This document shows, in pieces, positions 28,350 through 32,178 of a stretch of 64,000 nucleotides of DNA. A program made the position numbers and the translations under genes. The notes beneath the pieces were generated by a model that had not been told where the DNA came from, did no database searches, and saw only the letters and a program-made list of their open reading frames with translations. The DNA lies in assembly GCF_988243305.1 (NCBI RefSeq), contig NZ_OZ547136.1. The stretch is one strand, 5' to 3'. Numbering within the stretch: position 1 is the stretch's first letter; each line of letters begins with the position of its first letter.

Positions 28350-29243
28350 ATGAATGGAAAATTGCAAAGTTCGGATGTAAAAAACGAAACTCCGTACAAT
28401 ATTCCCTTATTGATTAACGAAAATGTGATCTCCAGCGGAATTTCTCTGATCTCGCTCTGGCATACCTACGCCGACGAGCATTACCGGGTGATCTGGCCGC
28501 GGGACAAGAAGAAACCGCTTATCGCCAACTCATGGGTTGCGGTGTATACCGTACAAGGATGTGGGAAAATTCTTTTAAAGAATGGCGAACAAATAACTCT
28601 GCATGGCAACTGTATTATATTTTTAAAGCCAATGGATATTCACTCTTATCACTGTGAAGGTTTAGTCTGGGAACAGTACTGGATGGAATTTACCCCCACC
28701 AGTATGATGGATATTCCCGTCGGTCAGCAAAGCGTTATTTATAATGGCGAAATTTATAATCAGGAACTCACCGAAGTTGCTGAGTTAATTACTTCACCAG
28801 AAGAAATAAAAAATAATCTGGCAGTCGTTTTTCTGACGAAAATTATTTATCAGTGGATTTGTCTTATGTACGCAGACGGTAAAAAAGATCCACAACGGCG
28901 GCAAATTGAAAAACTAATTGCCACTTTACATGCCAGTCTGCAACAACGCTGGAGCGTAGCTGATATGGCTGCCACGATCCCCTGTAGCGAAGCCTGGTTG
29001 CGTCGTCTGTTTTTACGCTATACCGGCAAGACGCCGAAAGAATATTACCTCGATGCACGTCTGGATCTGGCGCTATCGCTATTAAAGCAACAAGGGAACT
29101 CGGTTGGCGAAGTCGCTGATACGCTCAACTTCTTCGACTCCTTTCATTTCAGCAAAGCCTTTAAACATAAATTTGGTTATGCGCCGTCAGCCGTGCTAAA
29201 GAATACGGACCAGCACCCAACGGATGCCAGTCCACACAATTAA
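28350..29243 (+). CDS. yidL: AraC-family transcriptional regulator
   Basis: Track ORF 28320..29243; Met at 28350 has a ggaggg SD; C-terminal AraC-type HTH. Confidence 0.75.
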
Positions 29244-30562
29244 CGTAACTCTGGCCAGTACGCTTTGTTGGCCTCCAGCAAATCATCCAGAATAGCTTTG
29301 GCGACCGAGGCGCTCGGTACCGTTTTCGACAACGTAATCGCCTGCCACAGGTGCTGATATGAACGCTGTTCCCAGGCGTCCACGACCAGTTTTTCCACCG
29401 CCACTTGCTGACTCATTAACCCTTTCTGAAACTGCGGGATATCGCCGACCACCAGTGGTTCTGGTCCGTTGTGCCCGACCAGACACGGGATCTCGACCAT
29501 CGCTTCATCATCAAAGTTATGGATTGCCCCGTTGTTAGGCACAATCAGCAACATCCGCTCCTGAGTGTTGAAGGCAATTGCCGCCGCCAGATCGACGATG
29601 TATGACGCATGTTCGTCAATTTCCAGCTTGCCCGCCGCTGAATTTCCTGCCGCCGTAATGGCGCGGCAAGCATCGAAAACCTGTTTCTCGCGATGTTCCA
29701 TCACCTCATTCGCGCGGGTATGTTCAGGGTTGGAATGCTGAACGACATAATCCGGGAAGAGATAATATTTCAGATAGGTATTCGGTAATGTATCCGGGTC
29801 CAGAGCCTGGACATCCCGCGCTTTTGCATAGGTGTCGTTCCAGCTCGCTTCAGTATGTGTATCTTGCTGCGGTGGAACATAACCGTGCTTAGAGACATAT
29901 TGCCGCAGCTGGGGCATCAGGTCGTTGCCCTGCAAATCTTCAATTGATGTCCACCAGCCAAAGTGGTTCAGGCCGTAGTAGCGCACGCGCATCTGTTTGC
30001 GATCTTGCAGCCCAACAATTTGCGCCATCCGGCTTTCAATACCGATTGGCATGTCACAGATGTTGAGGATTTTCGCATTCGGGCGCAGACGACGCGTGGC
30101 TTCTGCGACAATAGCTGCCGGGTTGGAGTAGTTGAGCATCCAGGCATTTGGTGAATATTTTTCCATATAATCCACCAGTTCCAGGACGCCGCCAATGGAA
30201 CGCATGCCGTACGCTATTCCGCCGGGTCCGCAAGTTTCCTGACCAACAACGCCGTGGCGCAGCGGGATTTTTTCATCCAGTTCGCGCATCGGGTATTTGC
30301 CGACGCGGATGTGCGCCATGACAAAATCAACGTCGCTGAACGCCGCTTCAGGATCGGTGGTGTAACTAAACGCAATGTCCGGCGCTTTCTCTTTAAGGAT
30401 GACTTTACAGGCTTCAGCAATGACTTCCTGCCGCGCGCCATCGTTATCATAAAATTTCAGTGCACGAAGCGGGAAACGGTCCTGATTCGCCAGGAGCATC
30501 AACACGATGCCTGGTGTAAAGGTGCTTCCACCGCCTGCGACAACCACTGAGAATTTGGTCAT
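29240..30562 (-). CDS. glvA: 6-phospho-alpha-glucosidase (GH4 family), intact
   Basis: 440 aa, N-terminal NAD-binding [13 protein letters not shown] and GH4 core; homologous position to the K-12 glvG pseudogene. Confidence 0.8.
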
Positions 30563-32178
30563 TATACTGCCTCCGTAATGGCAACATTTTCTGCTGATTG
30601 ATGAGAATTAATTAAGCTATCGAGCTGTTCACGCAGCTGGGATACATGCAGACCAATGATCACCTGAATGGCATCGCCACTACGGAAGACGCCGTGCGCT
30701 CCCAGCTTTTTAAAGACTTCGTCATCCAGCGTTTGTGACATGTCATGCAGTGCAATCCGTAGACGCGTCGCGCAATTGTTGATGCTGGAGATATTGCCGA
30801 CCCCGCCCAGGGCTTGCAGGATACCGGCAGCCTGATCCAGCTCTTTTTTTGGCTCTGCCGCGGTGGTTTGGCCTCGCGAGGCTTTATATTCGGCTTTTGA
30901 GTAGAGTTTCACTTCCGCATCTTCACGTCCCGGCGTGCACATGTTGAATTGCAGAATCAGGGTGCGGAAAACCACGAAGTACAGCAGGGTAAAGCACAAC
31001 CCAATGGCGATTTGGGTCAGCATCATATCCGCGTGGTTGCTGAACATCGGGATCCAGTTTTGCGGTAAAACCTGGTCAATCAAACCACCGCCCATGTTGC
31101 CCACCACACCAAAGAGGTACATCACGGTCGACATTGAGGCCGCCAGCACGGCGTGTACCGCAAACAGCAACGGTGAAATGAACAGGAAGGTAAATTCCAG
31201 CGGTTCGGTAATTCCCACCAGCATGGCGGTTAAGGTTGCGGGGATCAGCAAGCCCGCCACTTTTACCCGATTTTCCGGTGCGGCAGTGAAGTACATCGCT
31301 AAAGAAATGCCCACGGCACCAAAGATTTTTGAGTTACCGTGCAGGGCAAAACCTCCTTCCGGGAACAACGATTTCAGCGGCTCGGCGCTCAAACTGAACT
31401 CTTGCAGATGCTGCGCCCAGTACATCTGAATGCCGCCTTCAACAGCTGCCGGACCAAAGATAAACGGTCCGTAGATGAAGTGGTGTAAACCGGTTGGGAT
31501 CAGAATACGTTCGAGGAAGGTGTAAACCCACACCCCAAGCGCACCCGCCGAACGCAGGAACGCTTGCAAAGATTCAATCCCCATTTGTACTTTTGGCCAG
31601 CCGAGCAACGTCAGCCAGGCGCAGGGGATCATCACCAGGAAGGCGATAATCACCACATAAGATGTCCCCTGGAAAATGCCGATAAACACCGGCAGTTTTT
31701 TATCGAACAGGCGGTTATGCAGCGCCGTCACAATGCCGGAAATGATAATCGCGCCGATAATGCTGGTATCGAGAGTTTTAATCCCCGCCATCATTGTCAG
31801 CCCGCTACCTGCCACCGCGTCCTGAGTGAAATCGACGCCGAAGTAGCTTCCCCAGGTCATTCCCATCGCGTTGATGAAATAGTTCCAGGTCAGGAAACTC
31901 ACCATCACCGCCAGACAAGCACGCCCCTGCGCTTGCTTCGCAAGGCCAATGGGTAAACCGACAGCAAAAATCAGCGGCATATTACGGAATACCGTCCAAC
32001 CGCCCTCTTCAATAATGTGTACGATTTGCGCGAACAAACTGTTTGGATCGGTCAGTGATTCCCCGACAAACATCGGGTTTTGCAGCAAGATGGCAAGACC
32101 CACCACAATCCCGGCGAAGGGAAACAGCAGCACTGGCGTGAACATCGCGCCGCCAAAGCGTTGAATTTGACTGAGCAT
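30562..32178 (-). CDS. glvC: PTS alpha-glucoside-specific EIICB component (fused IIC-IIB)
   Basis: Track ORF 30562..32439 (625 aa) has an unlikely N-terminal extension; Met at 32178 has a gagga SD and gives ~538 aa with EIIC membrane domain plus C-terminal EIIB (NCATRLR). Confidence 0.8.

Follow-up and report, generated by a model that had tools for sequence, protein, structure and literature searches.

Does an Escherichia coli strain whose glv locus differs from the damaged one of K-12 retain a working pathway for alpha-glucosides? The question is raised by the window analysed here (64,000 nucleotides of contig NZ_OZ547136.1, assembly GCF_988243305.1), for which the original prediction proposed an intact glv PTS operon in place of the degraded one of K-12. 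Our analysis makes it likely that the window carries the ancestral, undamaged allele, which is orthologous to Klebsiella aglA-aglB and homologous to Bacillus malP(glvC)-glvA and whose two products would import and cleave alpha-glucosides by the route described below. The features of the locus are listed in Table 1.

Table 1 Features of the glv locus and its neighbours, in positions of the window
Feature	Positions	Strand	Description
yidL	28350..29243	(+)	AraC-family regulator (Pfam HTH_AraC, AraC_binding); convergent with glvG, 4-bp end overlap
glvG (aglB orthologue)	29240..30562	(-)	Intact ORF; 440-aa GH4 6-phospho-alpha-glucosidase, predicted to be NAD+/Mn2+-dependent
508-bp glvG segment missing in K-12	29454..29961		Codons 201-370, loss frameshifting; from direct alignment
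glvCB (aglA orthologue)	30562..32178	(-)	One 538-aa PTS EIICB, alpha-glucoside subfamily, without EIIA domain
Cys469 codon, EIIB CATRLR motif	30772..30774	(-)	Predicted phospho-acceptor, from motif position and PF00367 match 453-482
EIICB codon 369	31072..31074	(-)	CAG (Gln) in the window, TAG (amber) in K-12; Q369*
Divergent control region glvCB/yidP	32179..32473		295 bp; 99% conserved, seven strains aligned
Palindrome AGATGTCTACTTTTTCG/CGAAAACGTAGATCTCT	32324..32357		34 bp, from inverted-repeat search; candidate YidP (GntR/HutC) operator
Second copy, TAGATCTCT / GTAGATC motif	32455..32482		Overlaps yidP start; direct and inverted repeat
yidP	32474..33190	(+)	238-aa GntR/HutC regulator (Pfam GntR 3-64, UTRA 87-224); divergent from the operon

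Our results indicated that the GH4 enzyme is complete, as had been predicted. Specifically, both of its Pfam domains are covered from end to end, the N-terminal (Rossmann) Glyco_hydro_4 (PF02056) at residues 6-184 (profile positions 2-182 of 183) and Glyco_hydro_4C (PF11975) at residues 195-415 (profile positions 1-211 of 211). The NAD+-binding glycine motif GGGS stands near the N-terminus at residues 10-13, and C169, D170, H200, and Y263 align with Cys171, Asp172, His202, and Tyr265 of B. subtilis GlvA (1U8X), all conserved; these are the Mn2+ ligands and catalytic residues of GlvA. With regard to specificity, GlvG scored 921 bits against 6DUX and 753 bits against 1U8X, both alpha-enzymes, vs. 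212 bits against the 6-phospho-beta-glucosidase 1S6Y, and it fell below the cut-off of the NCBIfam alpha-galactosidase model (181 against 486). By these scores its nearest characterised relatives are 6-phospho-alpha-glucosidases, with 6-phospho-beta-glucosidases and GH4 alpha-galactosidases more distant, and RefSeq names the product "6-phospho-alpha-glucosidase". The suggestion of a "maltose/arbutin-type" substrate needs to be divided: the alpha-glucoside family is right, with AglB and GlvA the closest enzymes, but "arbutin-type" is a legacy mislabel, arbutin being a beta-glucoside.

The permease also proved to be a single fused chain, with PTS_EIIC (PF02378, residues 10-346) and PTS_EIIB in the same protein, and the motifs GITEP at residue 322 and CATRLR at residue 469. 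By analogy with other EIIB domains of the Glc family, Cys469 is the predicted phospho-acceptor. The protein matched the alpha-glucoside IIBC model TIGR02005, which is a subfamily-level model and not an equivalog, at 958.4 bits (cut-off 607.3) over residues 2-523 and profile positions 1-524 of 524. Pfam and NCBIfam-type profile searches found no EIIA domain in this protein or in the operon, and crr lies outside the window. Compared with characterised homologues, the GlvG and EIICB ORFs are both full length by alignment. Stop and start codons overlap between EIICB and glvG (TAATG), GGAGG lies before the glvG start, and the overlap together with the Shine-Dalgarno sequences indicates a co-translated operon.

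The EIICB frame is open from 30562 to 32439 (-), and the Met at 32178, which gives the 538-aa protein, has AGAGGA 7 nt upstream and is the start used in K-12 glvC and in RefSeq for strain MEI003, whose allele is 100% identical to that of the window over 3.4 kb. A 625-aa version starting from 32439 was dropped, since TIGR02005 aligns from residue 2 of the shorter protein; the good Shine-Dalgarno sequence and the annotated starts at 32178 also stand against it. The 87 additional codons are a mechanical ORF extension.

The corresponding K-12 genes, glvC-glvB-glvG (b3683, b3682, b4556), occupy the same locus among the same neighbours at 98.3–98.9% nucleotide identity, and the window EIICB differs from them in 3 of 538 codons with no indels. 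In the MG1655 annotation glvG is an 815-bp pseudogene, as the original prediction stated, and direct alignment traced its condition to the loss of 508 bp flanked by CCACCAG...AGTGGTTC microhomology. This deletion removes most of the C-terminal GH4 domain together with Tyr263, and His200 is the last unaltered residue. The split of glvC and glvB that it named is likewise present in MG1655 as two separate CDSs, but it reflects one amber codon and no gene fission: Q369* leaves a "GlvC" of 368 aa and a "GlvB" of 161 aa. K-12 has both lesions and the window has neither; each is a simple derived change, in glvG a 508-bp deletion at microhomology and in the EIICB a nonsense substitution. The alignments with K-12 and with Bacillus GlvA, which the original prediction had named as its check, therefore come out in its favour, with the K-12 ORFs broken, those of the window whole, and no gaps relative to GlvA. 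PMC5309279, citing earlier papers, describes the K-12 copies as cryptic, truncated or nonfunctional.

It does not follow that the strain is unusual. Among 5426 complete E. coli genomes, the 508-bp segment was kept in 1649 (30%), O157:H7, O145:H28, BL21, ST38, and ETEC strains among them, so that the window is distinctive relative to K-12 but not within the species. The segment was deleted in about 2615 genomes (about 48%); the junction was identical to that of K-12 in all 8 sampled, and the same in 9/9 sampled deletion strains. About 1150 genomes matched <80% of the glv region, and EC444, the only one sampled from this group, is without glvG-glvCB-yidP. For the amber codon, the K-12 81-mer with TAG had exact matches in 348 genomes, and the 4/4 that were sampled are K-12 laboratory derivatives. 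In 8/8 sampled strains with the 508-bp segment, glvG and EIICB were both intact. The intact alleles in RefSeq (O157:H7, O145:H28, BL21, ST38, ETEC, and others) have the same ORFs of 1323 and 1617 nt, and their 1–4 residue differences from the window proteins amount to no biological difference. The window, MEI003, and MG1655 share the gene order yidJ-yidK-yidL, glv, yidP-yidE-ibpB. The intact operon of the window is thus an ordinary strain polymorphism. Dispensable-operon erosion appears to run through one old 508-bp deletion common to roughly half of E. coli, while whole-operon deletion, seen in one sampled strain, may explain up to another fifth.

To evaluate selection, we compared alleles with and without glvG. 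The mean pairwise dN/dS was 0.07 for glvG (8 sampled intact strains) and 0.02 for EIICB (8 intact and 2 deletion strains), and the EIICB protein was identical in 5/8 intact strains despite 10–19 synonymous differences. The intact alleles are under strong purifying selection, which indirectly supports the proposal that the strain may retain a working alpha-glucoside PTS pathway. After loss of glvG the pattern changes: missense or nonsense EIICB changes were present in 9/9 sampled deletion strains, and the ratio of synonymous to nonsynonymous polymorphism was 24:8 there vs. 58:4 in intact strains (Fisher p = 0.019, in a sample of 17 genomes with shared ancestry). The EIICB ORF was still open in 7/9 sampled strains without a working glvG. 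The accumulation of such changes after the glvG deletion suggests that GlvG and EIICB work as a unit, and the decay of EIICB would be a secondary step in operon erosion.

Upstream of the operon, the divergently transcribed yidP likely encodes its repressor. The 34-bp palindrome of the control region, a perfect 17+17 repeat in the O157:H7 version, is a candidate YidP operator, and the second motif copy at the yidP start is a candidate autoregulatory site. A CRP-like TGTGT-N8-TCACA of atypical spacing lies upstream of the palindrome, an observation to which we attach no claim. In BL21 and N3, yidP is frameshifted while the structural glv genes are intact. A sigma-70 consensus scan of positions 29000-32700, the control region included, returned 0 matches vs. 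3.4 expected by chance; this is a crude search that activator-dependent promoters escape, and it carries no information on expression. Terminator-like matches in the promoter/terminator scan were at chance level. The Rfam scan of positions 28000-33500 found no RNA element, its sole match being HTH-XRE at 21.7 bits vs. a gathering score of 49.8.

Taken together, the operon most likely works as follows, in a scheme whose substrate range, Crr dependence, YidP regulation, and actual expression we infer. The EIICB would take up an alpha-linked glucoside and phosphorylate its glucosyl moiety at O-6. Since the Klebsiella and Bacillus systems use such sugars, candidate substrates are isomaltose, methyl-alpha-glucoside, and five isomers of sucrose (palatinose, turanose, leucrose, maltulose, and trehalulose), possibly also maltose or maltitol, a range borrowed from an enzyme of ~87% identity and a subfamily-level transporter model. 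Because the operon is without an EIIA, EIIA-Glc (Crr) encoded elsewhere would serve, and the phosphoryl group would pass from PEP through EI, HPr, and EIIA-Glc to Cys469 of EIIB. The translationally coupled GH4 enzyme would then convert the 6-phospho-alpha-glucoside, with NAD+ and Mn2+, to glucose-6-phosphate and the aglycone. Repression by YidP, acting at the intergenic palindrome, is probable. As no sigma-70-like site was found, the operon could be poorly expressed or activator-dependent.

This last point opens another reading, that of a cryptic operon with intact ORFs, silent in wild type like bgl, cel/chb, and asc until an activating mutation such as YidP loss or an IS insertion. The missing promoter match, the divergent GntR repressor gene with its strong palindrome, and the words "cryptic or nonfunctional" that PMC5309279 uses of the K-12 genes all fit such silence; the yidP frameshifts in BL21 and N3 could be the activating mutations, and an operon lost or broken in several independent ways across E. 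coli is what a dispensable function would lead one to expect. However, permanent silence should not yield the dN/dS values observed, nor would a silent operon be expected to show an EIICB constraint that relaxes detectably only after glvG loss. Inducible repression by YidP also differs from crypticity, and the promoter scan was blind to activator-dependent promoters. We consider a cryptic operon unlikely, though deserving of some weight. That the ORFs are open merely by chance, or belong to a lineage becoming pseudogenised, so that their integrity would say nothing of function, is disfavoured by the selection data and to our judgement barely credible. It could appeal to the clear dispensability of the locus, with about 70% of complete genomes damaged or without glv, but it sits poorly with the 58 synonymous vs. 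4 nonsynonymous changes in intact EIICB alleles, the dN/dS of both genes, and the retention of every catalytic and phosphorylation motif.

It is also conceivable that the operon functions on a substrate other than that of AglA/AglB (maltose or maltitol, or a host or plant alpha-glucoside), or that EIICB has a second, hydrolase-independent role. The breadth of a subfamily-level model leaves room for the former, and B. subtilis GlvA/GlvC accept maltose, isomaltose, and even panose (PMC5309279); for the latter speaks the EIICB frame that stays open in most sampled strains without a working glvG. Against them stand the gapless high-scoring alignment of the hydrolase with AglB and the excess of missense and nonsense EIICB changes in glvG-deleted strains, and we hold this explanation to be improbable. 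The undamaged, AglA/AglB-like operon therefore remains our preferred reading.

An intact glv is in itself already known, as RefSeq annotates the enzyme and the K-12 copies are called cryptic or truncated in papers cited by PMC5309279. Its importance is small beyond housekeeping, and at this locus K-12 serves poorly as a reference. We predict that isomaltose, palatinose, and other alpha-glucosides could be imported and cleaved by many E. coli strains, natural and pathogenic as well as industrial (BL21), a prediction that bears on strain-specific metabolic models, on the reading of Biolog-type phenotypes, and on fermentation of starch-derived feedstocks; Bacillus genes have been brought into K-12 to gain alpha-glucoside use (PMC5309279). 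We lean slightly toward a broader proposal, that ~30% of E. coli (O157:H7, O145:H28, ST38, and B/BL21 among them) can import sucrose isomers, isomaltose, and other alpha-glucosides by a working, selectively maintained PTS route missing from K-12-based models of E. coli metabolism, that this would give a genotype-predictable growth phenotype and a niche marker, and that EIICB decays once the hydrolase is lost. Such decay would perhaps reflect harm from importing a sugar-phosphate that cannot be cleaved. The type strain DSM 30083T is reported as palatinose-, turanose-, maltitol-, and methyl-alpha-glucoside-negative, and we found no experiments on intact E. coli glv alleles in the searchable literature.

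The systems to which the operon can be compared come from two genera. In B. subtilis, a Gram-positive host, the regulator is GlvR, of the RpiR type, and its counterpart beside the E. coli genes of the window is of the GntR/HutC type. GlvA aligns with the window GlvG over residues 3-439 with no gaps. With B. subtilis glvA and glvC expressed, E. coli could use alpha-glucosides that included isomaltose and panose; in a crr mutant the pair did not support growth on isomaltose (PMC5309279). For Klebsiella, PMC5309279 reports that aglA and aglB in E. coli K-12 confer use of isomaltose, methyl-alpha-glucoside, and five sucrose isomers (citing Pikis 2006 and Thompson 2001), as well as an interaction of AglA with the EIIA-Glc of E. 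coli (citing Pikis 2006). K. pneumoniae AglB (6DUX/6DVV) aligns with the window GlvG over residues 1-439 with no gaps, at ~87% identity by an approximate count from the printed alignment, while the likeness of the transporter to AglA is drawn through the TIGR02005 model only. The Klebsiella system and that of the window both consist of two genes, an EIICB and a GH4 enzyme, both are without an EIIA, and it is Klebsiella AglA/AglB that the glv pair of the window most likely resembles.

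The window holds an intact pair of alpha-glucoside PTS genes, as the original prediction had proposed: the ORF listing returned a full-length 440-aa GH4 ORF (glvG) and one fused 538-aa EIICB ORF (glvCB). The 87 codons upstream of the EIICB Met at 32178 were rejected as protein and treated as mechanical ORF extension, because this Met is the annotated start in both RefSeq MEI003 (an E. coli strain) and K-12 glvC, has AGAGGA 7 nt upstream, and is favoured by the TIGR02005 model, whose alignment begins at residue 2. The EIICB stop and the glvG start overlap (TAATG, preceded by GGAGG), and from this arrangement we read glvCB and glvG as a translationally coupled operon. 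The fusion is further borne out by PTS_EIIC and PTS_EIIB (Pfam) in the same protein, which scored 958 bits against TIGR02005 (alpha-glucoside-specific PTS IIBC; cut-off 607), with all 524 model positions covered. A GITEP motif lies at residue 322 and a CATRLR phospho-cysteine motif at residue 469; the domain search found no EIIA domain in EIICB. In RefSeq the whole protein bears the name 'PTS sugar transporter subunit IIB', which probably comes from the NCBIfam equivalog NF007255/PRK09702. That model has 161 positions and matches residues 378-538, where the GlvB fragment of K-12 lies; in that case the label would go back to one half of a gene split by a nonsense codon.

The glvG product carries both GH4 domains end to end (Pfam). 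The alignment to Bacillus GlvA suggested with the original prediction was run and was gap-free (B. subtilis, 1U8X; 753 bits, residues 3-439), as was that to the Klebsiella pneumoniae 6-phospho-alpha-glucosidase AglB (PDB 6DUX; 921 bits, residues 1-439), while the best 6-phospho-beta-glucosidase match reached only 212 bits. GGGS10-13 is kept, and C169, D170, H200 and Y263 align with GlvA Cys171, Asp172, His202 and Tyr265. RefSeq already names the intact enzyme 6-phospho-alpha-glucosidase. Arbutin is a beta-glucoside, and the predicted 'arbutin-type' pathway, like the old 'arbutin-specific' label, is ill-suited to this enzyme, which matches 6-phospho-alpha-glucosidases most closely.

Coordinates of features in the window and in fetched comparison loci (L numbers, own coordinates)
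Feature	Position (strand)	Observation
adeD (adenine deaminase)	8523-10288 (+)	split into 417-aa and 171-aa ORFs
adeD deletion	~9772	1 nt, AACGAATTG -> AACGATTG
Two ORFs	15564-18616 (-)	496 aa and 435 aa, between uhpA and ilvN
glvG	29240-30562 (-)	440 aa
Segment deleted in K-12	29454-29961	508 bp
EIICB gene (glvCB)	30562-32178 (-)	538 aa; ORF extends to 32439
EIICB codon 369	31072-31074	CAG; TAG in K-12
Palindrome	32324-32357	34 bp
yidP		divergent, upstream of operon; GntR/HutC-type regulator, GntR HTH and UTRA domains (Pfam)
yidL		convergent, downstream of operon; AraC-type regulator (Pfam)
727-aa ORF	56914-59097 (-)	between mnmE and tnaC/tnaA
yidP, BL21-RIPL	L006 6021-6508	frameshifted
yidP, N3	L011 6221-6908	frameshifted
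glvG-TnpB fusion, 1332KP (NZ_CM173849)	L008 3530-4849	glvG identical to intact allele to ~residue 283, then unrelated sequence

Based on these families and on PMC5309279, which cites Pikis 2006, Thompson 2001 and Reizer 1994, phosphoryl groups would pass from PEP through EI, HPr and EIIA-Glc (Crr) to Cys469 of the EIIB domain, alpha-glucosides would be taken up and phosphorylated through the EIIC domain, and the GH4 enzyme, with NAD+ and Mn2+, would release glucose-6-phosphate and the aglycone. That paper reports that K-12 with Klebsiella aglA and aglB grows on methyl-alpha-glucoside, isomaltose and five sucrose isomers, and that AglA interacts with EIIA-Glc; a crr mutant with B. subtilis glvA and glvC did not grow on isomaltose, and the K-12 homologues are termed cryptic or truncated (PMC5309279). 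Intact-glv strains are predicted to use sucrose isomers and isomaltose.

Among 5426 complete E. coli genomes, the region was matched in some part in 5418 and covered to at least 80% in 4264; 1649 (30%) held the 508-bp segment, including O157:H7, O145:H28, ST38, ETEC and BL21. By subtraction, ~2615 genomes were covered to at least 80% without the segment, and ~1150 matched less than 80% of the region. The junction was identical to that of K-12 in 8/8 sampled non-K-12 deletion strains, which indicates a single ancestral event; seven of these eight kept an open 538-aa EIICB and one carried two other stop codons. The exact K-12 81-mer with TAG369 occurred in 348 genomes, and the four sampled were all K-12 laboratory derivatives (ER1709, ET12567, BM28, MC4100). 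Among the matches listed, a spread sample, the match in 7/30 was confined to the final 211 nt of yidL; EC444, the one such strain examined, has lost glvG, glvCB and yidP, and its yidL lies directly next to yidE. Strain 1332KP carries an independent lesion, a glvG-TnpB fusion with yidJKL lost. Given the shared junction, the other independent lesions and the 30% of intact genomes, the state of our window is ancestral and common. Touchon et al. 2009 include glvC in a table of genes from a commensalism/pathogenicity comparison of phylogroups (PMC2617782). The window allele is known, annotated and common, and the observation is real and was correctly interpreted.

Conservation across seven strains is 99% in the 295-bp control region. 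The palindrome, a perfect 17+17 in O157:H7, and a second element (TAGATCTCT/GTAGATC) at the yidP start are plausible candidate YidP operators. In BL21 and N3, yidP, the putative repressor gene, is frameshifted with glvCB and glvG intact, and the operon could be constitutive there. Because a crude scan of 29000-32700 found no sigma-70 promoter, a poorly expressed or cryptic operon stays the main rival explanation, one that we consider rather improbable.

The polymorphism pattern is what would be expected if glvG and EIICB act as a unit under selection. Both ORFs were intact in all eight sampled strains with the 508-bp segment, and mean pairwise dN/dS was 0.07 for glvG (these intact strains) and 0.02 for EIICB (with two deletion strains added); five of the eight encode the same EIICB protein even though their genes depart from the consensus by 10-19 synonymous changes. 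In every sampled glvG-deleted strain (9/9), EIICB was altered by one or more amino-acid or nonsense changes (P238Q, P243L, S125R, M199T, Q6K, Q369*, E40* and Q518* were seen). Synonymous to nonsynonymous EIICB polymorphism was 58:4 in the intact class vs. 24:8 in the deletion class (Fisher p = 0.019), in a small sample and with statistics that ignore phylogeny. Such decay would be expected if EIICB is useless or harmful without the hydrolase; this signature and the predicted use of sucrose isomers and isomaltose are of mild interest.

The window belongs to the 83-84 min region of the E. coli chromosome (uhpTCBA, ilvBN, emrD, yidF-L, glv, yidP, yidE, ibpBA, dgo, gyrB-recF-dnaN-dnaA, rpmH-rnpA-yidC-mnmE, tnaCAB). 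It is 100% identical to MEI003 (NZ_CP071263) over the 3.4-kb glv region (29000-32400) and only 98.4-98.6% identical outside it, and is therefore from a different, mosaic strain; the pattern suggests recombinational mosaicism around glv. The two sequences (MEI003 loci L009 and L010) are offset by ~118 nt before position 11,880. The adeD deletion, relative to the intact 588-aa MEI003 gene, may reflect either a true frameshift or an error in sequencing. In the 727-aa ORF, Pfam recognised a ShET2 enterotoxin N-terminal domain (Toxin_15, 3.6e-46); RefSeq names its MEI003 copy 'ShET2/EspL2 family type III secretion system effector toxin', and K-12 is not known to carry a gene there. The 496-aa and 435-aa ORFs had no Pfam match at E <= 1e-5 and no NCBIfam match at E <= 1e-20; MEI003 annotation gives a frameshifted hypothetical and a hypothetical, respectively. 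RefSeq annotates the whole fused 1332KP CDS as a TnpB-family protein, and yidI through yidL are missing there. In N3 and O6:H16, IS200/IS605 elements stand in place of yidJKL, and in IMT16316 yidL is interrupted by IS1.

The degraded K-12 version that had been described is confirmed: in the MG1655 annotation glvG is a pseudogene of 815 bp, and glvB is a CDS separate from glvC, so K-12 lacks the intact ORFs, yet 30% of other E. coli have them; the split, however, is one nonsense codon and not gene fission. MG1655 aligned to the window with two lesions only. The 508-bp deletion, flanked by microhomology (CCACCAG/AGTGGTTC), removes glvG codons 201-370 and shifts the frame, taking most of the C-terminal GH4 domain, Tyr263 included. 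The other lesion is an amber codon in place of Gln at EIICB codon 369; supE (Gln-inserting) K-12 suppressor strains should still make some full-length EIICB of exactly wild-type sequence. Further EIICB differences are I166L and P238Q only. Since the amber is the sole gene-breaking change in the EIICB gene, with no indels anywhere in its alignment, that codon cuts one EIICB into the two halves known in K-12 as 'GlvC' (368 aa) and 'GlvB' (161 aa, starting at Met377).
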